Shown: positions 1 through 11,821 of the stretch, piece by piece
How positions within the stretch are numbered: the stretch's first letter is position 1
How the letters are laid out: each line of letters opens with the position of its first letter
IMG/VR virus record: IMGVR_UViG_2778261276_000001
Coordinates: 1 to 12,123 of that record
From: a virus
Lineage: Duplodnaviria; Heunggongvirae; Uroviricota; Caudoviricetes
DNA: 12,123 nt
Strand: one strand, 5' to 3'
Notes under the pieces: generated by a model
Told to the model about the DNA's origin: nothing
Seen by the model: only the letters and a program-made list of their open reading frames with translations
Databases searched by the model: none
Translations under genes and position numbers: made by a program

Positions 1-401
1 GCACTACCTTGCAGCCTACTCCCGACACCAAAATTTCCCTTATGTAAAACGTCTGATAAACCAAGGTTTTCGAGAGCTGTTTTCACCGTGCCATCCGATT
101 TGATATCACCAAACGGATTCTTGCGGCTCAGGTATTCAACAGCAAACCCCGATCCCAGCAATTCAACAAAACCGGGCAGATCACCATTATCAAGCACATC
201 CCGTTGCGTTTTGTCACTTACAAACTGGGCCAGAGCTGCAGCAATAAAGCTGGCCTGCCGAATAACCTTATTGACTTGCGCACTGGATGCTTTCCCTGCT
301 GTAAATCCGGATAAAAGCGCAGGCAACGCTTCCCATTCCTCCTGCGACATAACATTGGCATTCCGATCAGTTGCAAACGCTTTAAAGTCATTTTTCGCCA
401 T
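1..401 (-). CDS. Tail fibre protein, N-terminal part (gene runs off the window start); start codon at 401..399
   Basis: Minus-strand ORF open to position 1; ATG overlaps the stop of the upstream gene (TGATG); translation [33 protein letters not shown]... resembles a phage side tail fibre N-terminus; position right after the gpI-like gene matches Mu/P2 baseplate-fibre order. Not listed in the ORF track because it is partial. Confidence 0.55.
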
Positions 402-1081
402 CAGAGTAATACTCCCCATGCCCCTACATCAAAACCACTGATGAATTCGTTATCCATATCAAAACCAAAAAATTTTGAACCTTCCGATGGAGTTTCCACC
501 GAAGGTGTTTCAATGCCACCCGCCCAAACCCCGGCGGCTTTTACTGTGAGATATCCCTGTTTAATTGCAGCAATTAACTCACGCGATACATCTGAAATAT
601 CAGTATCAGGAAAGAGCCAGACCGATATCGTCATGTCCTGGTTATCGACTATCTGCATTCGCAGTCCGGATCCTGCTGTCGCCGCGTCAAGAATTGCTGG
701 AAGCGAATCATTCCGTCCGTCCCAGTTATTAATCGCAATCTTCGCTTTAAGGATGACACGATAAGTTTCATCGCTGAGGTACATGTATCCGGAATCAGGA
801 TCGTATGGCCCCTGCCATACACCCTGATCATATCCAAGCCCGTCGGTATCCCAGCTGAAATAGACACCTGAGATAGGCTGGCTGACAACACGGCTACGTC
901 CGATCCACAATCCAAGAATGTCAAGTTGCACACCAACCGCAGAGTCAATATCAAATGCAGTAATCAGCCCTCTGGTGGCAGCCGCAACATCAATAAGCGG
1001 CCGGGTCATCAGATCAACATGTGCAAGAAATTTAGGTTTGGTGGCGTGGTAGTTCGTGATCAGTTCGGTGTATTTGCTCAT
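401..1081 (-). CDS. Baseplate/tail protein, P2 gpI / Mu gp48-like (YmfQ/DUF2313-like)
   Basis: 226-aa ORF, 4-nt overlap with the upstream gpJ-like gene and 1-nt overlap with the fibre gene; position between gpJ-like and fibre genes; resemblance to YmfQ-type proteins is from memory only. Confidence 0.55.
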
Positions 1082-2277
1082 GACTCCACCGTTATAACGA
1101 TATTTTCCGGTGTACAGGACGCAGATTCGTTGTATCTGATATCAATGTTTGATGACGACAAAGCCCCCGGGGATTTCCCAATCGTCAGTTCCTGAATATC
1201 GTAATAGCGTGCATTCCCGCCACTCACCACGCCAAGATTCGCCGGTGAGTAAATGCGACTTAAAAGGACCGAATCACCAATCATCAGACTATTGATATAG
1301 TCGGAAATAGCCTGCTGGATCTGCTGCCCTATCTGTGAGGTATAACCCGTAAAAACTTTTAATTTAATCCGGGCATAAACAGGTACATCACTGGAACGCG
1401 AGAATTTGATTACATGGGGATTGCCGTATTTATCCGGAACCGTAACGGATGTTGTACCGTGAGTGGCTGTCCCCTGGCCTTTATTCCCTCTGATAGCCTG
1501 AGCAATATCCGTCACATCACCGCCATCCACAATTACAGCAACAGAGTGTGGCGGTAACCCGTTACCGTCCTCCGAACCAGTATCGTTTTCATAGAGTTTG
1601 TGGCGGGTTACACCGGTAACATTAGAAACAGCACCATCCAGTGCTTCAAATGGGGTTATTGATGGCAACGCAACACTTTGCGACTGGCGGATACGTAACT
1701 CAGCATCAGTTTCTGCCGGAGAGCCAACAGTAGCCGCAGCAGGATTAGTTACCGAAACCCAGCCACGGGTTGGCGTATTAATTTCAGTGATAGTTCCAGC
1801 CAGCGCCGCCACTGCACCACTGACGGAACATGTTGCGGTCGCCATCACTGTACCATCCACGCCGACCACCACTGAAGCAGGCAAACGCCATATCACATTA
1901 TTACTGTCTTTCACGCTGCCATTAATGATGGTTGTTCCGGCAGTTCCTGTAAGAAGCAAATCAACCGTAGAGTTCGTCGCGCCTTTACGTGAAATACCAT
2001 TTATTTTCACGTTACTGGTCAGTGCAGCCCCATAGCCGGTTGCCGGTGAAAAACAGTTGTAGACAGTTATCGCCATATTATTGGCATCATGAATCGCCAG
2101 CGCCATCAGAGCCACCATCTGGCCGTCTTTGCTGTCCGGTTCGAGGTAGGCATCACTGCCATAAATCTGCTGAAAATAGCTAATCAGGGTGCTGAGTATC
2201 GTCTGATAATCAGGCGCACTGATCCCCTCCGCGGTTACCTTTGCAGATAAACCGAGAGAATCAAGGTTCAGAGCCAT
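1078..2277 (-). CDS. Baseplate J-like protein (P2 gpJ / Mu gp47 family)
   Basis: 399-aa ORF translationally coupled to its neighbours; size and position (after gpW-like, before gpI-like) fit the conserved V-W-J-I baseplate order. Confidence 0.6.
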   Translation of the reverse strand: MALNLDSLGLSAKVTAEGISAPDYQTILSTLISYFQQIYGSDAYLEPDSKDGQMVALMALAIHDANNMAITVYNCFSPATGYGAALTSNVKINGISRKGATNSTVDLLLTGTAGTTIINGSVKDSNNVIWRLPASVVVGVDGTVMATATCSVSGAVAALAGTITEINTPTRGWVSVTNPAAATVGSPAETDAELRIRQSQSVALPSITPFEALDGAVSNVTGVTRHKLYENDTGSEDGNGLPPHSVAVIVDGGDVTDIAQAIRGNKGQGTATHGTTSVTVPDKYGNPHVIKFSRSSDVPVYARIKLKVFTGYTSQIGQQIQQAISDYINSLMIGDSVLLSRIYSPANLGVVSGGNARYYDIQELTIGKSPGALSSSNIDIRYNESASCTPENIVITVES

Positions 2278-2630
2278 TACGCCTCCGATGTAACAGTCGT
2301 TATTCCATAGAGAGTGTCGATTTCAGCGGAAAACATGACACGTCGGGTCGTGGTATCCACCGTCGTATTGAAAGAGAGGATTGATTTAACGCCCTGCGTT
2401 TCGAGGATGCGCTTACGGATCGCCAGGTTGTAAGTTTCTGGTTTTTGCCTGCCCAGCACGGACTGGATCCACGGTGTTCCCTCTGTGGTATCAAGAAACC
2501 ATTGCCCATACCACAATTCGAATCGCGTTTTCACAGCCTGCGCTACGGCCTCAGGCGAGTTAATCAGCCAGGTGTCATCACCGCTGCCAAAGGTGTAATC
2601 GCCATCGGCGTCTTCACGTCTGTATCGCAT
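2277..2630 (-). CDS. Baseplate wedge protein, P2 gpW / Mu gp46-like (gp25-like)
   Basis: 117-aa ORF with 1-nt overlaps to both neighbours; size and synteny between spike and J. Confidence 0.5.
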   Translation of the reverse strand: MRYRREDADGDYTFGSGDDTWLINSPEAVAQAVKTRFELWYGQWFLDTTEGTPWIQSVLGRQKPETYNLAIRKRILETQGVKSILSFNTTVDTTTRRVMFSAEIDTLYGITTVTSEA

Positions 2631-3382
2631 CAGTTTACTCCGTCGGTATTGCTTCCACCGCGCTGAACACCACCATGAGTGTGCGTATCATCGATTGGCT
2701 TGCCGTTAGCCTTCACGCTACCCAAAAACTCAACAGCACCAGTGATTTTTGAAGCCACACCAGAAACAACAGACCCCACCATGCCTCCCATCCAGGTTAA
2801 CAGGCCATGAATGGTTACTTTCTCAGAAAAATCAGCCAGAGGGGCAACCACATCAAGGCCCCCCGGAGCGACAATTTTAATTTTCCTGGTATCAGGATTA
2901 AGCTCAAAATAGGTGCTGCCGTCATCACTACGCAACTGTGTGGCACTGGTATTAATACCGCTAATCTTCCTTGCCTGCGACTGGGGACCGACAATACAAA
3001 ACGCATCCGATAAATCATGCATTCTGTCATCGACCGGCTCCTGTATCCCGCCACTCTGCCACCAGAAATCAATACAACGATCGGCAAAAATCACCAAACA
3101 TTCATCACCGGCTTTAACTGGAAACGTTAGCGTACAGCCTCCGCCACGCGGGAATACCACTGGCACATCCACCAGCAATGGGTAATTTTTGGTAATGCGG
3201 TTGCCGTCGTTATCAATTTCAACGTAACGGATAGCAGGCTGTACAACCGCCGTCACCGCATCAGGAGCGAATGACTGAACAATGCCAGGCAAGGCGACAC
3301 GGATCTGGTTCTTTGTTGTTTCCCGTTCAGATTTAAATGTTTCGGCAAGGTCGCCGCTGCGGGTCTGGTCAGATACTGCCAT
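2630..3382 (-). CDS. Baseplate spike/assembly protein, P2 gpV / Mu gp45-like
   Basis: 250-aa ORF; C-terminal ...DDTHTHGGVQRGGSNTDGVN has an HxH motif typical of spike apex domains; synteny immediately upstream of the W-J-I genes. Confidence 0.6.
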   Translation of the reverse strand: MAVSDQTRSGDLAETFKSERETTKNQIRVALPGIVQSFAPDAVTAVVQPAIRYVEIDNDGNRITKNYPLLVDVPVVFPRGGGCTLTFPVKAGDECLVIFADRCIDFWWQSGGIQEPVDDRMHDLSDAFCIVGPQSQARKISGINTSATQLRSDDGSTYFELNPDTRKIKIVAPGGLDVVAPLADFSEKVTIHGLLTWMGGMVGSVVSGVASKITGAVEFLGSVKANGKPIDDTHTHGGVQRGGSNTDGVN

Positions 3383-3401
3383 TTAGTAGGCTCCAGAAAG
3401 C

Positions 3402-3424
3402 AAAAAACCCGCCAAGTGGCGGGT
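3402..3424 (-). terminator. Rho-independent terminator between the inserted cassette and the spike gene (hairpin can form on either strand)
   Basis: GC stem CCCGCCA-agt-GGCGGG at 3408..3423; on the minus strand it is followed by a T-run (plus-strand AAAAAA at 3402..3407); lies 22 nt after the stop of the 142-aa gene. Confidence 0.6.
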
Positions 3425-3446
3425 TTGAATTTTGAGAAATTTCAGC

Positions 3447-3875
3447 TTATGCAGTTAACGAGTCATCACCAATCTTCAGTAATTGATTAACGATTGCATC
3501 GACCTCTTCCGCATCCAGAATTACACTTCTCGCGGTAATCCGGTTGATTTTCCGCTCAAGCTTGTAATCAGAATTAACACGTTGGGCATGCGTCATTTTC
3601 AGTTTAACGCCGATTTTCTTTACTGCGTTAACATCAACATCGTTAAGTGCAGCTGCCTCACCACTACAAAAGGCCGTATAGACTCGCATGTGAACTCCAC
3701 CTTTTAGTTTTTCACCATCTTGTGTAGCGGTCGGTACCAGATTGTTGGTGATCCGTAAGGCGGAATGGTACATACCATAGTATGCTCGGCTAATAGCATT
3801 TCTCGTCCACATCTCACCGTTTAGAGCCAGGGAATGCTTAGCCAATTCAAGAAAACAGGTATGCTCAACCGACAT
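3447..3875 (-). CDS. Hypothetical 142-aa protein with an R-x6-H (HEPN-like) motif; second gene of an overlapping pair
   Basis: ORF with TAATG start/stop overlap to the upstream 243-aa gene; motif NAISRAYYGMYHSAL contains R-x6-H; about 43% GC in a sampled stretch versus about 55% in the flanking tail genes. Confidence 0.7.
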   Translation of the reverse strand: MSVEHTCFLELAKHSLALNGEMWTRNAISRAYYGMYHSALRITNNLVPTATQDGEKLKGGVHMRVYTAFCSGEAAALNDVDVNAVKKIGVKLKMTHAQRVNSDYKLERKINRITARSVILDAEEVDAIVNQLLKIGDDSLTA

Positions 3876-4606
3876 TAGAGTTCCCCGGCTTCAAAGCATC
3901 CGACGCATTCTGAATCCGCAAGCCCCGCAATAATAATCTCATCAGCCAAGGCATTATTCATCTGCGAAAGAAGCACTGGATCGTCTGTTTTGACTTCAAC
4001 GAACAGCGTATCAAGTTCTGACATTACATAAAAAGCATGAGCGCCAGCAAGACGAGCGCGGTACTTTTCTGCAACGTTCATCATGAGCCGCCCAATAGTT
4101 TTTAGCTCCTGAGCATGATCTTTTTGGGTATGCAGATAATTGAGCGTGTCATACCATTTGCCCATATCTTCAGGGCGCGGTACTTCCATTGCAGTTAGCA
4201 TCGGCATCACCTTTTCAAGCAAATCGATATCAACCCAGTATGCAGAAATTGTAGCAACCTCAGCCAATATCGTTGGATTAAGTGAATCAGATGCTTTCTG
4301 AATCATCACATACTGGCGAGCATGCAAACCTAAGTTACGCAGCGCAATCGTATAGTTACAAAAAGAAACTGGATCGTTAGGCGCTATTCTCAACCCCCGC
4401 TCACAGAGTGAACATCCTTCATCTATTTCACCAAGAACAAGCTTAGCTAAGCCTTCAATTGATAGCCCCTGATAACGTTCAGGTAGTTTCTTCGCTTCAC
4501 GAATGATTCGATGGATTTCAAACTCACTCAGAAGGTTTTCACCCTTAGTTAATGAAGGAGTCAGAAGATCTAACAGTTCTCCTGATTTTGGCTGCGCTAA
4601 ACTCAT
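3875..4606 (-). CDS. Hypothetical 243-aa protein, no recognisable motif; first gene of the overlapping pair
   Basis: Long ORF with a plausible RBS (AGGA about 10 nt upstream of ATG); preceded by a 149-bp intergenic region; translationally coupled to the 142-aa gene. Confidence 0.7.
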   Translation of the reverse strand: MSLAQPKSGELLDLLTPSLTKGENLLSEFEIHRIIREAKKLPERYQGLSIEGLAKLVLGEIDEGCSLCERGLRIAPNDPVSFCNYTIALRNLGLHARQYVMIQKASDSLNPTILAEVATISAYWVDIDLLEKVMPMLTAMEVPRPEDMGKWYDTLNYLHTQKDHAQELKTIGRLMMNVAEKYRARLAGAHAFYVMSELDTLFVEVKTDDPVLLSQMNNALADEIIIAGLADSECVGCFEAGEL

Positions 4607-4691
4607 GTTTTAGTTATTCCTGGCTTTAATGAAGTAGCATATCGATGGCAATCCACCATCAAAAAGTCAGTGCAGTGTAATCGCTCGTCTC

Positions 4692-4730
4692 AAAAAACAA
4701 CAGTTTTTAGAGCACATTTTGTTGTTTTTC
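4692..4730. promoter_or_regulatory. AT-rich inverted repeat (AAAAACAACA ... TGTTGTTTTT, 17-nt spacer) in the intergenic region upstream of the 243-aa gene
   Basis: Near-perfect 10-bp inverted repeat at 4693..4702 and 4720..4729; could be an operator or a weak terminator after the secreted-protein gene. Confidence 0.35.
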
Positions 4731-4755
4731 AGGCGTTACGAATTTCAGGTTACCT

Positions 4756-5097
4756 TCACCCAGCCACTTTTTTACAAGGGAAAGATCCGATGATTTTCGG
4801 CGCATCCATGCTGTTCTGCAGAAGCTGGACATTCAGGAATCGCGTTTCGGTACCAGGGCGACGAATGTATTCAAAGCCGTAGTTGTTACCGTCTTTGGCA
4901 GGCATAAGCCCCATGTCTACTTTCAAACCATTGGTACCCAGTTCGGTGATTTTTTGAGAGGTAACTCTTTCACCGTTGATAGTCGATAACTCGCCCTGGT
5001 TTGCAACCATAGTGTAGCCACCGCATTTAACCGTGAAGCCATCCGCCCACGCGCTGCACGCAGAAAAGACAGCTAACAGAAAAATAATACCCCTCAT
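4756..5097 (-). CDS. Secreted protein with N-terminal signal peptide (possible lipoprotein), 113 aa
   Basis: N-terminus MRGIIFLLAVFSACSAWA-DGF has a hydrophobic h-region and an AxA signal-peptidase I site; the Cys in FSAC could be a non-canonical lipobox; start 3 nt after the stop of the hub-like gene. Confidence 0.65.
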   Translation of the reverse strand: MRGIIFLLAVFSACSAWADGFTVKCGGYTMVANQGELSTINGERVTSQKITELGTNGLKVDMGLMPAKDGNNYGFEYIRRPGTETRFLNVQLLQNSMDAPKIIGSFPCKKVAG

Positions 5098-5100
5098 TGC

Positions 5101-6162
5101 TCATCCCCTTTGCAAAGCCGATCGCGTATACAGATCCGCCGCGCCACGCGCTTCGCACATCATATCCATGTACCACGCCTGGCCCCTTGTGTCGCCAGTG
5201 TACATAATCCCGCGCACAATATAAACGCCATCCGTTGCGATGCTGGCAGGCTGCGATGTGGTGCCGCTTAGCGTGATATTTCCATCCGTGTTCTGGTCGG
5301 TGATCTGACCACCAGCCATCGCAATATCGTTGTTCGACAAGGCGGTACGATACACGGAAGCCTGATCCAGTTGAATGAGCCCATTAACCCGGATGTTCGG
5401 ATTAATAAGCGCGCGGACGTTTACGCCGTTGCCGATGGTCTGCTGCGGCATGCCAATAAGCCCGGTAGCGCTGTTGAGCACAATCGCTTCGTGAACATAT
5501 TCATTATTCACCACCATCTGGCGCTGACCATCCACGAATTGCCATGTTGCGCCACATTGCCCGGCTACGTTATCCATTAGATGCCGCGTCATGCCAAAGA
5601 GCACCCGCCCCCGGGGGAATACAGTAGCAGGCATTTCAGGCGTCAGGCCTTCGGTCGCACCTTTGGCTTCGAAGTCTTTCATCAGCGCACGGTTCACATC
5701 AGCGACCGTGTAACCGGCAGCCAGCGTCTGTGAGGTTATACTGGTGGCAAAAGCCAGATCAGTATCTGCTGCCTGAATCAGGACGTAGGAATCAACCGGA
5801 CTGTCTTTTCCTGTGACCGAGTAGCGAATTTCACCGCTGAAAATCAGTCCGTAGTTGCGGCCATCTCTCTGGCCCACGTCCGCCGCGTCAACTTCCCGCA
5901 CGGTCCCTACGTCGCTTGCTGACACCTCCGGCGCGATACCGTCGTAACCGGCAATCAGACGCACTTTCGAAAATTCCTGCCCGGTGATTCGGTTCACAGT
6001 ATCTGCCGAGAGGTTATAAATTTTGATAGTCCCTACCCGGGACGCGCTGCTGATGTTGAACCAGTCGATCGTAAAGGTGACTTTGAAATCACTTAGCTCA
6101 ATTCCCTGACCGTTCCCGTCCACAAGCTGCAGCTCGAAATGTCTCATCCAGTTCTGTGACAT
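5101..6162 (-). CDS. Phage tail protein, probably baseplate hub (Mu gp44 / P2 gpD-like) by position
   Basis: 353-aa ORF with GGAG RBS; first gene of the tail operon in this window; function assigned only by synteny upstream of the spike gene. Confidence 0.45.
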   Translation of the reverse strand: MSQNWMRHFELQLVDGNGQGIELSDFKVTFTIDWFNISSASRVGTIKIYNLSADTVNRITGQEFSKVRLIAGYDGIAPEVSASDVGTVREVDAADVGQRDGRNYGLIFSGEIRYSVTGKDSPVDSYVLIQAADTDLAFATSITSQTLAAGYTVADVNRALMKDFEAKGATEGLTPEMPATVFPRGRVLFGMTRHLMDNVAGQCGATWQFVDGQRQMVVNNEYVHEAIVLNSATGLIGMPQQTIGNGVNVRALINPNIRVNGLIQLDQASVYRTALSNNDIAMAGGQITDQNTDGNITLSGTTSQPASIATDGVYIVRGIMYTGDTRGQAWYMDMMCEARGAADLYTRSALQRG

Positions 6163-6164
6163 GC

Positions 6165-6371
6165 TTACTCCGTTGATACCAGTAAATGACTGAGGCCGCC
6201 CAGATCAGTTTTCGTGGGATAATCCTGTGTGTTGTCATCGCAGACCACCACCAGCTTAAAACCAAGTCCCATAACTTCTTTCCACTGAGAGACTGCTGCA
6301 TCGCTAATGCCTAGTGCTTTAGCAACAGCACGCTGGGTTCCGAAGTGGTCAATAACATCTTTTTTGTACAT
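6165..6371 (-). pseudogene. cro: Truncated/chimeric cro: the first ~33 codons match P22/phage-21-type Cro, then fused in frame to unrelated sequence
   Basis: N-terminus MYKKDVIDHFGTQRAVAKALGISDAAVSQWKEV matches P22 Cro as I recall it (61 aa); the remaining 35 residues MGLGFKLVVVCDDNTQDYPTKTDLGGLSHLLVSTE are unrelated and the ORF stops 2 nt before the tail-gene ATG. Confidence 0.65.
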
Positions 6372-6451: not shown

Positions 6452-7102
6452 ATGAATACACAACTGATGGGTGAGCGTATTCGCGCTCGCAGAAAAGAAC
6501 TCAAGATTAGGCAGGCTGCCCTTGGCAAGATGGTTGGCGTGTCTAATGTTGCTATTTCCCAATGGGAGCGATCTGAAACTGAGCCCAATGGCGAAAACCT
6601 ATTGGCCTTAGCCAAGGCTTTGCAGTGCTCCCCTGATTACCTGTTGAAAGGAGAGGATAGTCTTTCAAACATTGCCTATCACAGCAGGCATGATCCAAGA
6701 GGTTCGTATCCTCTAATTAGTTGGGTAAGCGCAGGATGTTGGATGGAAGCTGTAGAGCCATATCATAGGCGTGCAATAGATAACTGGTACGACACAACGG
6801 TAGATTGTTCTGAAGACTCTTTTTGGCTCGACGTTAAAGGCGATTCAATGACTGCCCCGGCAGGACTGAGTATTCCTGAGGGGATGATTATTCTCGTCGA
6901 CCCAGAAGTCGAACCACGTAATGGAAAGCTGGTAGTCGCCAAACTTGAAGGAGAAAACGAGGCGACATTCAAAAAGTTAGTTATTGATGCCGGTAGAAAA
7001 TTCCTGAAACCACTCAATCCACAATACCCAATGATTGAAATCAATGGGAACTGTAAAATCATTGGCGTTGTCGTTGATGCCAAGCTAGCAAACCTTCCTT
7101 AA
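6452..7102 (+). CDS. cI: Repressor, P22 C2 / phage 21 cI type (HTH plus S24 LexA-like autopeptidase domain)
   Basis: 216-aa protein MNTQLMGERIRARRKELKIRQAALGKMVGVSNVAISQWERSETEPNGENLLALAKALQCSPDYLL... is near-identical to P22 C2 repressor as I recall it; C-terminal GDSM (Ser nucleophile) and a conserved Lys; divergent from cro across the operator region. Confidence 0.93.
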   Translation: MNTQLMGERIRARRKELKIRQAALGKMVGVSNVAISQWERSETEPNGENLLALAKALQCSPDYLLKGEDSLSNIAYHSRHDPRGSYPLISWVSAGCWMEAVEPYHRRAIDNWYDTTVDCSEDSFWLDVKGDSMTAPAGLSIPEGMIILVDPEVEPRNGKLVVAKLEGENEATFKKLVIDAGRKFLKPLNPQYPMIEINGNCKIIGVVVDAKLANLP

Positions 7103-7124
7103 GGGGCTTTCGCCCCTTTTTTAT
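7102..7124 (+). terminator. Rho-independent terminator after the repressor gene
   Basis: AGGGGC-tttc-GCCCCT hairpin directly after the stop, followed by TTTTTTATTT. Confidence 0.8.
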
Positions 7125-7191
7125 TTCCCGTTAAAAATCAAAGACAAACTAAATTCACGCCCATAAAATTAAGTTTTCTTCAAAAATGCAC

Positions 7192-7220
7192 TTGACCAAT
7201 AAATTAAGAAGTCTTAAATT
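7192..7220 (+). promoter_or_regulatory. pL-like promoter (-35 TTGACC 7192..7197, 17-bp spacer, -10 TAAATT 7215..7220) with the OL1-like operator AATTAAGAAGTCTTAAAT (7202..7219) in the spacer
   Basis: Consensus-like -35, correct spacing, and an operator palindrome of the same family as the OR sites. Confidence 0.6.
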
Positions 7221-7266
7221 TAAGCCATCAGCAGGACGCTGGAAGCCAAACGGAACAGATTGGCAG

Positions 7267-7306
7267 GCTCTTTAACATCGACGGACTCTCAACCTAACCG
7301 TTGAGA
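7267..7306 (+). promoter_or_regulatory. nutL site: boxA (GCTCTTTAACAT, 7267..7278) and boxB hairpin (TCTCAAC-CTAACC-GTTGAGA, 7287..7306) of phage-21 type
   Basis: boxA matches the CGCTCTT(T)A consensus; the 7-bp stem and CUAACC hexaloop match the phi21 boxB as I recall it; located between pL and N. Confidence 0.75.
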
Positions 7307-7416
7307 CCAGAACTTGAGTGGTTTTGGGGATGGCGCGAATTGCAGCTGCAAGACAGCGATCGAGAAGATAAGCACCTCGACGCGTCATGCGCCAAAGCCA
7401 CTTAAAGGAGACCATC

Positions 7417-7722
7417 ATGGTAACCATTGTCTGGAAAGAATCCAAAGGTACGGCAAAAAGCCGCTACAAAGCTCGCAGAGCAGAACTTATTGCCGAGCGA
7501 CGCAGTAATGAAGCACTGGCGCGAAAAATTGCGCTAAAGCTCTCTGGTTGCGTCAGAGCAGACAAAGCAGCATCACTAGGAAGCCTTTGCTGCAAGAAGA
7601 AAGAAGAAGTCGTTCGAAAAAATAGAAGTATTTATTACAAAGATTCAAACCCGTTAGGAAACAAAATACATGCAGTCCAAAAAATAAAATTGTACAGTAA
7701 ACTACCGTACGGTGCTTATTGA
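7417..7722 (+). CDS. N: Antitermination protein N, phage-21 type
   Basis: AAGGAG RBS before the ATG at 7417; N-terminal arginine-rich motif GTAKSRYKARRAELIAERR matches the phi21 N ARM as I recall it; downstream of nutL. Confidence 0.8.
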   Translation: MVTIVWKESKGTAKSRYKARRAELIAERRSNEALARKIALKLSGCVRADKAASLGSLCCKKKEEVVRKNRSIYYKDSNPLGNKIHAVQKIKLYSKLPYGAY

Positions 7723-7730
7723 GTATGCTT

Positions 7731-8063
7731 ATGGTGAAAAAGACTATTTATGTTAATCCTGACCGCGGACAAAACAGAAAAGTATCTGATAGAGGTCTTA
7801 CATCTCGAGACAGGAGGAGAATAGCGAGATGGGAAAAAAGGATAGCATATGCATTAAAAAACGGTGTAACACCTGGATTTAATGCTATAGATGACGGTCC
7901 TGAATATAAGATTAATGAAGAACCAATGGACAAAGTTGACAAAGCATTAGCAACACCATTTCCTCGCGATGTCGAAAAAATTGAAGATGAAAAATATGAG
8001 GATGTAATGCACAGAGTTGTTAATCACGCTCACCAACGAAATCCAAATAAAAAATGGTCATAG
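7731..8063 (+). CDS. nun: Transcription termination/exclusion factor Nun (HK022-type); the exact start is uncertain (ATG 7725, ATG 7731 or GTG 7734)
   Basis: Contains the ARM SRDRRRIARWEKRIAYALKNGV and the C-terminus ...HAHQRNPNKKWS with the penultimate Trp characteristic of HK022 Nun; overlaps the N stop codon. Confidence 0.85.
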   Translation: MVKKTIYVNPDRGQNRKVSDRGLTSRDRRRIARWEKRIAYALKNGVTPGFNAIDDGPEYKINEEPMDKVDKALATPFPRDVEKIEDEKYEDVMHRVVNHAHQRNPNKKWS

Positions 8064-8085
8064 CCCACTTCGGTGGGTTTTTTAT
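8064..8085 (+). terminator. Rho-independent terminator after nun
   Basis: CCCAC-ttcg-GTGGG hairpin followed by TTTTTTATT immediately after the nun stop. Confidence 0.75.
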
Positions 8086-8202
8086 TGTCTGAACAAATCT
8101 AATTTACTACCGCAAGCCACGCAGTGAAATGAGGGTTACCTGCTCAGGCCGCCAGAAGCAACGCGGAAAATCAATTCCAGCTTATTACGATTGAGGTGAG
8201 CC

Positions 8203-8340
8203 ATGCTCAAGAAAGTCAAACGCCGACTTTACAAAGAAGGTAGATATTCATGCCAGTTGCCAAAATGCGACACAACAAAATGGAGTGTCGATGACTGGTG
8301 TAACTGGATAGATAGATACGGAACTTGGTGGGATAAATAA
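8203..8340 (+). CDS. Small hypothetical protein (45 aa, basic N-terminus, Cys/Trp-rich) at the position of lambda sieB
   Basis: ATG preceded by GAGGTGA RBS; MLKKVKRRLYKEGRYSCQLPKCDTTKWSVDDWCNWIDRYGTWWDK; below the ORF-track size cut-off; leader sequence repeated upstream of two other ORFs. Confidence 0.4.
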   Translation: MLKKVKRRLYKEGRYSCQLPKCDTTKWSVDDWCNWIDRYGTWWDK

Positions 8341-8394
8341 CAGGTAACTTAAGCGTATTTACTTTCGCAGCAAACCACTTATTTGAGGTGAGAT

Positions 8395-8481
8395 ATGGAA
8401 GAAGAATTTGAAGAGTTCGAAGAGCATCCTCAGGATGTGATGGAACAATACCAGGACTATCCGTATGACTACGACTATTGA
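8395..8481 (+). CDS. orf28: orf28-like small acidic protein (28 aa)
   Basis: GAGGTGA RBS; MEEEFEEFEEHPQDVMEQYQDYPYDYDY; length 28 aa and a 17-nt overlap with the ral start match the lambda orf28/ral arrangement as I recall it. Confidence 0.55.
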   Translation: MEEEFEEFEEHPQDVMEQYQDYPYDYDY

Positions 8482-8562
8482 TAAAAATCAATGGTGTGGA
8501 CAATACGAACGACGACAATGATTGCCAGAGAACTTGGTAAACAGAACTACAAGGCTGCCTGA
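8465..8562 (+). pseudogene. ral: ral (restriction alleviation) with an internal ~103-bp frameshifting deletion
   Basis: N-terminus MTTTIDKNQWCGQ matches lambda Ral and stops after 18 codons (8465..8521); the Ral C-terminus MIARELGKQN.KAA is encoded in another frame at 8518..8562; junction at a CAAT microhomology. Confidence 0.6.
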
Positions 8563-8620
8563 TGGTGGCCTTTATTTTTGTCCGTAAATAATTTCATGCT
8601 TATTACAATCAAGGTGATAT

Positions 8621-9070
8621 ATGGAAGAACAAGCAAACAAGATTCTCGTAGAACTACTGCAAAAAGCCAGCAATGGAATAGATGCTGCTGTTTCATTTAG
8701 CCAAGCACAGATTCCTGATGTTGTTCATCAGTTGCTGCTATGGAATATGGTTGACAGTCTGATTAAAACATTAATAGCCATTCTAACAATCCCACTGGTT
8801 TTCTGGTTTATGAAGAAGCAGTGCCAAAGAGTTGAGACAGGTAAAATCGGTGATGAAGGATACTCATGGGAGAGGGGAAATCCCAAATACAGGCCGACAA
8901 TGGTTTGGGATAGCAAAGGAGATATTAACCTTCTTATCATGCCATTGGTTGGAGTTTTGACTCTGTGGGGGATTTTTATTATTGGTGTAGTAACCAATAT
9001 GACTTGGTTAAAAATTTGGCTGGCCCCAAAACTTTACCTTATCGAATATGCAGCATCATTGGTTAAGTAA
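8621..9070 (+). CDS. Hypothetical inner-membrane protein (149 aa, two predicted TM helices) inserted between ral and ea10
   Basis: Hydrophobic segments LIKTLIAILTIPLVFWFM and INLLIMPLVGVLTLWGIFIIGVV; AAGGTGA RBS; about 700 bp separates ral' and ea10 here versus about 180 bp in lambda as I recall it. Confidence 0.75.
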   Translation: MEEQANKILVELLQKASNGIDAAVSFSQAQIPDVVHQLLLWNMVDSLIKTLIAILTIPLVFWFMKKQCQRVETGKIGDEGYSWERGNPKYRPTMVWDSKGDINLLIMPLVGVLTLWGIFIIGVVTNMTWLKIWLAPKLYLIEYAASLVK

Positions 9071-9219
9071 TTTCAGGCCGCATAATCGTCCTTTATTTTT
9101 GGCATAAACAACAGAATAAACACTGCACTGTGTATTCATTCCAACGAGTGAATACACGGAGCAATGTCGCTCGTAACTAAACAGGAGCCGACTTGTTCTG
9201 ATTATTGGAAATCTTCTTT

Positions 9220-9248
9220 GCCCTCCGATGTGAGGGCGATTTTTTTCT
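9220..9248 (+). terminator. Rho-independent terminator-like hairpin upstream of ea10 (tL2-like position)
   Basis: GCCCTC-cgatgt-GAGGGC followed by GATTTTTTTTC. Confidence 0.6.
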
Positions 9249-9264
9249 GTGAGGATATGAACAG

Positions 9265-9633
9265 ATGTCAAACATCAAAAAATACATCATTGATTACGAC
9301 TGGAAAGCATCAATAGAAATTGAAATCGACCATGACGTAATGACAGAGGAAAAACTTCACCAGATTAATAATTTCTGGTCAGACTCTGAATACCGACTAA
9401 ATAAACACGGCTCTTTATTAAATGCTGTATTAATCATGCTGGCGCAACATGCTCTGCTTATAGCAATTTCGAAAGACTTAAATGCATATGGTGTTGTTTG
9501 TGAGTTCGACTGGGATGATGGAAATGGTCAGGAAGGATGGCCTCCAATGGATGGTAGTGAAGGAATAAGAATTACCGATATCGATACATCAGGAATATTT
9601 GATTCAGATGATATGACTATCAAGGCCGCCTGA
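9265..9633 (+). CDS. ea10: Ea10-like protein (lambda Ea10)
   Basis: 122-aa ORF of the same length and position as lambda ea10, immediately upstream of cIII; sequence appears lambda-like from memory. Confidence 0.8.
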   Translation: MSNIKKYIIDYDWKASIEIEIDHDVMTEEKLHQINNFWSDSEYRLNKHGSLLNAVLIMLAQHALLIAISKDLNAYGVVCEFDWDDGNGQEGWPPMDGSEGIRITDIDTSGIFDSDDMTIKAA

Positions 9634-9706
9634 GTGCGGTTTTACCGCATACCAATAACGCTTCACTCGAGGCGTTTTTCGTTATGTATAAATAAGGAGC
9701 ACACCA

Positions 9707-9870
9707 TGCAATATGCCATTGCAGGGTGGCCTGTTGCTGGCTGCCCTTCCGAATCTTTACTTGAACGAATCACCCGTAAATTACGTGACGGATGGAAACG
9801 CCTTATCGACATACTTAATCAGCCAGGAGTCCCAAAGAATGGATCAAACACTTATGGCTATCCAGACTAA
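9707..9870 (+). CDS. cIII: CIII, inhibitor of FtsH (protects CII)
   Basis: AAGGAG RBS; 54-aa product [54 protein letters not shown] matches lambda CIII as I recall it; overlaps kil. Confidence 0.93.
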
Positions 9871-9982
9871 ATTCACTATCGCCACTTTTATTGGCGATGA
9901 AAAGATGTTTCGTGAAGCCGTCGACGCTTATAAAAAATGGATATTAATGCTGAAACTGAGAGCAAGCAAAAGCATTCACTAA
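9839..9982 (+). CDS. kil: Kil (host cell division inhibitor), 47 aa
   Basis: Internal ATG with AGGAG RBS inside the longer track ORF 9713..9982; [47 protein letters not shown]; 46-nt overlap with gam as in lambda. Confidence 0.8.
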
Positions 9983-10353
9983 CCCCCTTTCCTGTTTTCC
10001 TAATCAGCCTGGCATTTCGCGGGCGATATTTTCACAGCTATTTCAGGAGTTCAGCCATGAACGCTTATTACATTCAGGATCGTCTTGAGGCTCAGAGCTG
10101 GGCGCGTCACTACCAGCAGATCGCCCGTGAAGAGAAAGAGGCAGAACTGGCAGACGACATGGAAAAAGGCCTGCCCCAGCACCTGTTTGAATCGCTATGC
10201 ATCGATCATTTGCAACGCCACGGGGCCAGCAAAAAAGCCATTACCCGTGCGTTTGATGACGATGTTGAGTTTCAGGAGCGCATGGCAGAACACATCCGGT
10301 ACATGGTTGAAACCATTGCTCACCATCAGGTTGATATTGATTCAGAGGTATAA
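9937..10353 (+). CDS. gam: Gam (RecBCD inhibitor), 138-aa long form
   Basis: Near-identical to lambda Gam as I recall it ([22 protein letters not shown]... to ...[10 protein letters not shown]). Confidence 0.95.
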
Positions 10354-10358
10354 AACGG

Positions 10359-11144
10359 ATGAGTACAGCACTCGCAACGCTGGCTGGGAAGCTGGCTGAA
10401 CGTGTCGGCATGGATTCTGTCGACCCACAGGAACTGATCACCACTCTTCGCCAGACGGCATTTAAAGGTGATGCCAGCGATGCGCAGTTCATCGCATTGT
10501 TGATCGTCGCCAACCAGTACGGCCTTAATCCGTGGACGAAAGAAATTTACGCCTTCCCTGATAAGCAGAACGGCATCGTTCCGGTGGTGGGCGTTGATGG
10601 CTGGTCCCGCATCATCAATGAAAACCAGCAGTTTGATGGCATGGACTTTGAGCAGGACAATGAATCCTGCACATGCCGGATTTACCGCAAGGACCGTAAT
10701 CATCCGATCTGCGTTACCGAGTGGATGGATGAATGCCGCCGCGAACCATTCAAAACCCGCGAAGGCAGAGAAATCACGGGGCCGTGGCAGTCGCATCCCA
10801 AACGGATGTTACGTCATAAAGCCATGATTCAGTGTGCCCGTCTGGCCTTCGGATTTGCTGGTATCTATGACAAGGATGAAGCCGAGCGCATTGTCGAAAA
10901 TACCGCATACACTGCAGAACGTCAGCCGGAACGCGACATCACTCCGGTTAACGATGAAACCATGCAGGAGATTAACACTCTGCTGATTGCCCTGGATAAA
11001 ACATGGGATGACGACTTATTGCCGCTCTGTTCCCAGATATTTCGCCGCGACATTCGCGCATCGTCAGAACTGACACAGGCCGAAGCAGTGAAAGCTCTTG
11101 GATTCCTGAAACAGAAAGCCACTGAGCAGAAGGTGGCAGCATGA
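10359..11144 (+). CDS. bet: Bet (Red beta single-strand annealing protein)
   Basis: 261-aa product [72 protein letters not shown]... matches lambda Red beta; 4-nt overlap with exo. Confidence 0.97.
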
Positions 11145-11821
11145 CACCGGACATTATACTGCAGCGTACCGGGATCGACGTGAGAGCTGTCGAACAGGGG
11201 GATGATGCGTGGCACAAATTACGGCTCGGCGTCATCACCGCTTCAGAGGTTCACAATGTGATAGCAAAACCCCGCTCCGGAAAGAAATGGCCTGACATGA
11301 AAATGTCCTACTTCCACACCCTGCTTGCCGAGGTTTGCACCGGTGTGGCTCCGGAAGTTAACGCTAAGGCGCTGGCCTGGGGAAAACAGTACGAGAACGA
11401 CGCCAGAGCCCTGTTTGAGTTTACTTCCGGCGTGAATGTTACTGAATCCCCGATCATCTATCGCGACGAAAGTATGCGTACCGCCTGCTCTCCGGATGGT
11501 TTATGCAGTGACGGCAACGGCCTTGAGCTGAAATGCCCGTTTACCTCCCGGGATTTCATGAAGTTCCGGCTCGGTGGTTTCGAGGCCATAAAGTCGGCTT
11601 ACATGGCCCAGGTGCAGTACAGCATGTGGGTGACGCGAAAAGATGCCTGGTACTTTGCCAACTATGACCCGCGTATGAAGCGTGAAGGCCTGCATTATGT
11701 CGTGATTGAGCGGAATGAAAAGTACATGGCGAATTTTGACGAGATGGTGCCGGAGTTCATCGAAAAAATGGACGTGGCACTGGCTGAAATTGGTTTTGTA
11801 TTTGGGGAGCAATGGCGATGA
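11141..11821 (+). CDS. exo: Exo (lambda exonuclease, Red alpha)
   Basis: 226-aa product [44 protein letters not shown]... matches lambda Exo. Confidence 0.97.

Follow-up and report, generated by a model that had tools for sequence, protein, structure and literature searches.

We analysed a 12,123-nucleotide (nt) stretch of a tailed-virus record (IMG/VR IMGVR_UViG_2778261276_000001, Caudoviricetes; hereafter the window), in which two small genes are lodged between the baseplate hub gene and the membrane-puncturing spike gene of a tail operon. An initial annotation, made from the sequence alone, had proposed that they form a two-gene defence or toxin cassette. We confirmed the two minus-strand open reading frames (ORFs) that it reported, encoding 243 and 142 amino acids (aa), together with the TAATG overlap between them (the stop codon of the first gene and the start of the second lie within cTAATGt) and the 149-nt region upstream of the first gene (Table 1). 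The products are called here the partner (243 aa) and the HEPN protein (142 aa). The hub and spike genes are indeed separated by ~1.7 kb, which holds three minus-strand ORFs of 113, 243 and 142 aa, but not all of this distance is insert: the 113-aa gene belongs to the backbone and the variable part measures 1.33 kb. The insert had also been described as poorer in G+C than the flanking tail genes. The direction of this difference was right (43.3% for the whole insert, with 44.0% and 44.1% for the two genes and 37.6% for the AT-rich leader, versus 50.5% for the tail genes overall), but the figure of 55% quoted for the flanks fits only the hub gene (54.5%).

The suspected HEPN affinity of the 142-aa protein was borne out both by a structural model and by profile links. 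We initially found 29 full-length or near-full-length relatives, apparently all from Enterobacterales, which carry names such as 'UPF0332 family' (several, JGI) or 'HEPN domain-containing' (JGI/UniRef); all alleles belong to one PHROG family, 5176. The AlphaFold2 model computed on the family alignment (mean predicted local distance difference test score (pLDDT), 90.9) has five helices (residues 5-17, 21-40, 61-76, 82-104 and 112-140) and shows the all-alpha HEPN architecture, whose core of four or five helices has an insert separating helix 2 from helix 3. The profile of the family matched that of a sister subfamily of 131-aa proteins with an hhalign probability of 99.4%, and the sister profile in turn matched the solved HEPN proteins 9xbd (E 3e-8), 9xbc (E 2e-7) and 2hsb (E 1.5e-6). 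When compared with the PDB, the close-family profile gave only a marginal match, to 2hsb; the link is significant only via the sister subfamily. Two sister-subfamily members pass the gathering score of Pfam PF05168 (28.4 and 26.0 bits versus 22) and five more fall below it; the 142-aa protein itself had no match to PF05168 at E<=0.1. The profiles and the model thus assign a HEPN fold to the 142-aa protein, of the type represented by AF0298/UPF0332 (PF05168 'HEPN-T').

The initial annotation had read an R-x6-H arrangement in this protein as the HEPN catalytic signature. The motif (NAISRAYYGMYHSAL) is present, and its R30 and H37 are invariant in 25 relatives, but it sits in helix 2 of the model. 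The Rx4-6H motif of HEPN domains lies at the end of the penultimate core helix (Anantharaman 2013), where the 142-aa protein reads R99-V-N-S-D103-Y104, with the arginine kept and the histidine replaced (R99-x3-D103-Y104). Furthermore, AF0298 has T at the position of R30, and 9xbd has Y at that of H37. We therefore rejected R30-x6-H37 as the catalytic signature on the basis of its position in helix 2 and of the alignment to AF0298. In AF0298-like 'HEPN-T' proteins (PF05168) and in AbiV, the motif histidine has given way to D, and a conserved histidine supplied by the insert between helices 2 and 3 serves as the alternative (Anantharaman 2013). The cassette protein shows both traits, through D103 and H62. 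R99, D103, Y104 and H62 are invariant across the 142-aa and 131-aa subfamilies, and AF0298 has the same four residues, its alternative H included, at the aligned positions; H62, part of a GGxHxR motif, is profile-aligned to the histidine of AF0298 'KTHRG'. By analogy with these proteins, H62 is likely to be the catalytic histidine, and we infer that H62 and R99 would form the active site of an RNase dimer. The chains 9xbd_A and 9xbc_A of two recent PDB entries (each a 'HEPN domain-containing protein'), the closest solved relatives by sequence, differ from each other at the motif tyrosine (RNRSDY versus RNRSDF), which suggests that the depositors consider the residue equivalent to Y104 to matter for function; a literature search for the two PDB codes returned no relevant paper.

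The partner is modelled with similar confidence (pLDDT 90.5) as an array of helical repeats (residues ~7-181) followed by a small beta-beta-alpha-beta domain (186-240). The repeats are tandem helix-turn-helix units that match TPR profiles. The whole fold is common to two uncultured-virome proteins (template modelling (TM) score 0.66-0.68). A HMMER search of 1.84 billion cluster representatives yielded 353 matches, only ~65 of which are full-length, stand-alone partners (236-276 aa), the remainder being generic TPR proteins aligned to profile positions 42-112. Named members of the family come from Proteus, Providencia and Aeromonas, besides Enterobacterales and Vibrio, and all are annotated as 'hypothetical'; in PHROGs, partner alleles are spread over three families (22649, 37103 and 17809) that, like family 5176 of the HEPN alleles, carry no functional annotation. 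Conservation is highest in the N-terminal 56 residues, and a PKSxEL motif in the N terminus is common to even the most distant alleles, while residues 141-183 are the most variable. It is tempting to speculate that this variable part of the repeats is a sensor surface.

The two genes travel together. At each of the 11 loci that we inspected, the HEPN gene lies downstream of the partner gene, either overlapping it or starting no more than 3 nt after its end, so that the pair displays the generic traits of a type II toxin-antitoxin system: small genes that are co-oriented, coupled and always found together. The HEPN protein was the more conserved of the two in 36 of 36 pairwise comparisons (means, 37% versus 27%). 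As the initial annotation anticipated in likening the cassette to a moron, the pair is absent from most related tail modules and occurs at unrelated positions in other phages. It lies between tape-measure and distal tail genes in a lambda-like Lelliottia prophage and between tail tube and tape-measure genes in Klebsiella. In Yersinia it is flanked by lysis and terminase genes, in a Brenneria prophage it follows a Rap1a gene, in Providencia it is upstream of baseplate genes, and in Klebsiella phage Chronis it is found among small early-region genes. In a Vibrio P2-like phage it is found between the portal gene Q and the replication gene A; the Q-A old/tin locus of P2 is a validated anti-phage hotspot (Rousset et al. 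2022). The pair is, thus, a horizontally mobile accessory cassette and not a component of the baseplate. Neither this pairing nor the partner family nor the hub-spike slot was described, modelled or annotated in the databases and literature that we searched, and literature searches with the RefSeq accessions WP_000110002 and WP_000050470 likewise returned nothing.

To define the borders of the slot, we compared the window by blastn with eight loci that hold other cargos. On the spike side, homology ends at 3425/3426 (at 3441 in one locus) in seven of the eight; in phage YP3 it ends at the spike start, 3382. On the hub side it resumes at 4754-4769, around the stop of the 113-aa gene, in all eight. 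The variable unit is therefore 3427-4755, which makes the 113-aa gene part of the backbone; this gene was kept in every related locus examined, always between the hub gene and the cargo. The same comparison bears on the terminator that had been assigned to the cassette. A strong intrinsic terminator is present (-15.7 kcal/mol, z -4.3; equal stability in 0 of 200 shuffles), but it is not the cassette's own: since the homology of the alternative-cargo loci reaches 3425/3426, it lies within the shared flank in seven of the eight and is conserved backbone. A second, AT-rich hairpin in the cassette-specific leader (-10.1 kcal/mol, z -1.8) was indistinguishable from shuffled sequence. An Rfam search of the cassette revealed no RNA element, a sub-threshold Trp_leader match being the terminator itself, and a repeat search revealed no att-like repeats at the cassette borders.

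To see how often the slot is occupied by this cassette, we searched 5,426 complete E. coli genomes with the hub-spike region as the query, counting genomes with a match to at least one flank. The flank or flanks were matched in 336 genomes and the cassette in only 33, of which 28 carry it at at least 99% identity and 5 at ~88.6%. Divergent alleles of the same pair fill the slot in further genomes (243 + 140 aa in 12; 256 + 131 aa in 10, including E2348/69), and the three alleles together are present in ~1% of complete E. coli genomes, including the enteropathogenic E. coli reference strain E2348/69. The slot also has other occupants. A YafO-family toxin (Pfam E 4e-17) with a 190-aa protein is found in 37 of the 5,426 genomes; in E. 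coli EC17CM13 this resembles a YafO toxin with a non-YafN partner (Table 1). Elsewhere the slot holds a 79-aa DUF4282 membrane protein or, in phage SEN34, a 138-aa membrane or secreted protein. In Escherichia phage vB_EcoM-606R2 it holds a 170-aa protein (phrog_19013; 3144-3656 of locus L004) with a canonical-looking HEPN motif, RNNLFHG, which, by this motif, could be a second, unrelated HEPN-type cargo. Yersinia phage YP3 carries in the slot a 266-aa TPR protein (3207-4007 of locus L002) without a HEPN gene downstream. It is remote kin of the partner family, scoring 24 bits against the family profile and sharing C-terminal motifs, and might represent a remnant, an orphan partner or a decoy antitoxin. 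The hub-spike site is a cargo slot of the kind described for the P2 and P4 hotspots, and in the literature searched it has no description as a hotspot. Like the P2 old/tin hotspot, it is small (1-5 kb) and exchanges its cargo often, while the phage genes on either side are conserved; the tail module that houses it is, however, a different, SEN34/Brunovirus-like one, with the hub/113-aa genes on one side of the slot and the spike gene on the other.

Among the closest known systems is the type IX retron. Its HEPN effector was modelled on AF0298 (2hsb), and lacks the motif histidine while keeping the alternative one (Mestre et al.). For Retron-Kva2, the effector was reported to cut both rRNAs and tRNAs and to be toxic on its own; it requires H64 (third helix) and R122 (fourth helix), and is sterically restrained by a winged-helix partner and multicopy single-stranded DNA (msDNA) (2026 preprint). 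The cassette protein is similarly a small stand-alone HEPN without the motif histidine, with H62 and R99 in the third and fourth helices where the retron effector has H64 and R122, and in both cases the HEPN gene overlaps the gene of a partner protein. HEPN_IX, a name that we take to refer to the type IX retron effector of Mestre et al., was the top PADLOC match for all four family members scanned (E 1.6e-4 to 9e-3). However, the cassette differs from these retrons in gene order (partner first here, reversed there) and in the nature of the partner (TPR here, winged-helix there); there is no reverse transcriptase-sized ORF near the pair and no retron RNA in Rfam, and the similarity to HEPN_IX is weak (E 1e-4 to 1e-2).

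Other HEPN systems also invite comparison. Unlike in HEPN-MNT systems, the partner is not a minimal nucleotidyltransferase, and the HEPN protein lacks the RX4HXY motif seen in the MNT-regulated DUF86-type toxins. AbiV of Lactococcus, a proven anti-phage protein, shares with the cassette protein the AF0298-like grouping, the absence of the canonical histidine and an alternative histidine at the same position (Anantharaman 2013); AbiV is, however, a single-gene system of ~200 aa from a different host lineage, and neither cassette protein matched an AbiV model. RnlA-RnlB and LsoA-LsoB of E. coli have much larger, multidomain toxins with the canonical HEPN motif, the toxin gene first and antitoxins unrelated to TPR proteins. 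HEPN nucleases that share an operon with a repeat protein, or are fused to one, have a precedent in LA2681 (TPR) and AbiU2 (Sel1 repeats) (Anantharaman 2013), but their HEPN domains keep the canonical Rx4-6H and fall outside the PF05168/AF0298 branch. Among the entries of the DefensePredictor supplements available to us, the cassette proteins did not appear; DS-28 listed there (HEPN plus a hypothetical protein) was rejected as the same system because of its different size and gene order.

On balance, we consider it probable that the pair encodes a HEPN RNase held in check by its partner and works either like a toxin-antitoxin system or by abortive infection. According to this scheme, the HEPN protein would dimerise into an RNase in which H62 and R99 replace the usual Rx4-6H motif, and which, if unrestrained, would cleave host RNAs and stop growth. 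The TPR partner, translated just upstream and coupled to it, would bind the HEPN protein and inactivate it, presumably by occlusion, because the partner has neither nucleotidyltransferase nor enzymatic features. Release might follow from loss of the partner, or from binding of an infection-derived ligand to the variable repeat surface. The cells would then either arrest growth, as with a toxin-antitoxin system, or abort the infection and so protect the lysogen population. A more specific version is possible, which we put forward tentatively: the pair may be a phage-borne immune system of a kind not described before, in which a fast-evolving TPR sensor frees an AF0298/retron-IX-type HEPN RNase upon binding a protein of the infecting phage, the hub-spike slot being a new defence or toxin hotspot. 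Partner-only genes, in phages such as YP3, could then be decoy antitoxins that disarm such a system.

Several observations weigh against a restrained RNase. Because the canonical Rx4-6H is absent, the argument for catalysis is one of analogy. The partner has none of the DNA-binding or enzymatic domains typical of antitoxins, and it can exist alone, since YP3 holds a partner-like gene without a HEPN gene. Pfam and NCBIfam scans gave no above-threshold family for either cassette protein. The PADLOC run suggested by the initial annotation returned no significant match to an established defence or toxin-antitoxin model, only weak matches to HEPN_IX (E 0.0094) and PDC-M71B (E 0.037) in PADLOC-DB v2. 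A putative promoter of the cassette would lie in the leader (4607-4755), but a scan of the 149-nt leader of this allele for the sigma-70 consensus found no match, so that expression in the lysogen is presumptive. The leaders of other alleles and loci, 124-338 nt in length, include several with 9-10 of 12 matches to the sigma-70 promoter.

Part of this evidence would suit a HEPN protein that is inactive, in which case the pair might work for the phage itself during late expression, whether by binding RNA or nucleotides as an adaptor, by countering defence or by helping to take over the host. Binding without catalysis is known for some HEPN domains (Anantharaman 2013), and the missing Rx4-6H, the position of the cassette in a late operon in the same orientation, the failure to recognise a promoter for it in this allele, and the solitary partner-like gene of YP3 are all consistent with such a role. 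Non-catalytic HEPN domains, however, typically lose their active-site residues (Anantharaman 2013), whereas the cassette protein keeps an invariant H, R, D and Y that correspond to the alternative active site put forward for the AF0298-like group. In the HEPN of type IX retrons, whose non-canonical layout is the same, experiments showed the equivalent H and R (H64 and R122) to be required. The low G+C content, the patchy distribution and the swapping with the YafO pair are, moreover, typical of morons and not of core phage functions. We thus think it quite unlikely that the HEPN protein is inactive. Somewhat easier to entertain, though still unlikely in our view, is a plain addiction pair, which would stabilise the prophage or this genome segment by post-segregational killing and would do nothing against other phages. 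The coupling of two small genes, of which the one for the putative neutraliser leads, would fit this explanation, as would a classical toxin-antitoxin toxin of the YafO family in the same slot, and the cassette is 100% identical across many unrelated strains, consistent with selfish spread on a prophage. It is harder to reconcile with a partner that lacks the DNA-binding domain usual in autoregulating type II antitoxins and with the presence of the pair in the P2 Q-A defence hotspot; and a partner that diverges faster than the HEPN protein and has variable repeats fits ligand sensing better than simple neutralisation. Addiction and defence are not mutually exclusive, as many toxin-antitoxin systems also defend.

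Flanked by the hub and spike genes and oriented like them, the two genes might have been taken to encode structural or assembly components of the baseplate, for example hub or spike chaperones. We rejected this identity on distribution: the cassette is absent from ~90% of flank-matching E. coli prophages, which carry unrelated cargo instead (the YafO pair among them), and from phages SEN34, YP3 and vB_EcoM-606R2. In siphovirus, podovirus-like and P2-like phages the pair adjoins lysis, terminase or replication genes, and HEPN and TPR folds are not those of virion proteins. Given this distribution, a structural role is effectively refuted, and we regard it as extremely improbable. The restrained HEPN RNase remains the interpretation that we favour.

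The surroundings of the cassette are those of a rearranged prophage or of a chimeric assembly (Table 1). Positions 58-6273 of the window are collinear with a prophage of E. coli strain WAT (98.9%). The spike assignment is concordant with the RefSeq annotation. The product of the 113-aa gene has a signal peptide and a possible lipobox; it could be an accessory protein of the tail or, as a periplasmic protein or lipoprotein, a factor in superinfection exclusion. At 6273/6274 the tail module breaks off inside a baseplate 'plug' gene and is joined to cro of a lambda/phage-21 (DE3-like) immunity region, the fusion yielding a chimeric 68-aa ORF (6165-6371, minus strand); the expected sheath, tube, tape-measure, head, lysis and replication genes are missing from between. 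A lambda-like pL operon occupies the right half of the window (6452-11821). The 6273/6274 junction has no counterpart in any complete E. coli genome, and the window is therefore either a deleted or recombinant prophage remnant or a chimeric assembly.

Table 1. Features of the window and, in the last row, of one locus with an alternative cargo
Feature	Location	Strand	Remarks
Variable cargo slot	3427-4755	minus	1.33 kb; leader plus two cassette genes; from blastn against eight other-cargo loci
243-aa partner gene	3875-4606	minus	TPR array plus C-terminal alpha/beta domain
142-aa HEPN gene	3447-3875	minus	predicted non-canonical HEPN, AF0298/UPF0332 (PF05168 'HEPN-T') type
Leader upstream of partner gene	4607-4755	minus	149 nt, non-coding, AT-rich
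AT-rich hairpin in leader, just after 113-aa gene	~4693-4729	minus	10-bp stem, 17-nt loop
Intrinsic terminator, just upstream of spike gene	3405-3426	minus	9-bp stem, 6 GC pairs, U-tract
113-aa backbone gene, upstream slot border	4756-5097	minus	phrog_3443; signal peptide, possible lipobox (LAVFSAC)
Baseplate hub gene, upstream slot anchor	5101-6162	minus	phrog_196, E 5e-88; sub-threshold Pfam match E217_GP41
Membrane-puncturing spike gene, downstream slot anchor	2630-3382	minus	Pfam spike N-terminal domain, E 3.6e-43; GpV apex motif
117-aa gene, between baseplate J and spike in tail-gene run		minus	
Baseplate J gene	1078-2277	minus	
DUF2612 tail gene	401-1081	minus	
LexA-like cI repressor	6452-7102		
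Lambda_thermo (cIII thermoregulator)	9693-9751	plus	Rfam, 88.5 bits
Gam	9937-10353		
Bet	10359-11144		
Exo	11141-11821		
YafO-toxin pair, E. coli EC17CM13	1326-2316 of locus L007		190-aa protein (phrog_35514) precedes toxin

The HEPN branch to which the 142-aa protein belongs, its non-canonical chemistry (in type IX retrons) and operons that combine HEPN and repeat proteins are already known. If our interpretation is correct, the cassette would bring to the prophage immunity and toxin modules a HEPN system of only two genes (1.3 kb) in which the partner is of a new kind, and would extend the non-canonical His/Arg active site of HEPN proteins from type IX retrons to a retron-independent setting. 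It would also reveal, in a common enterobacterial prophage tail module, a new searchable cargo slot (hub/113-aa gene, cargo, terminator, spike) that could be mined for further systems.

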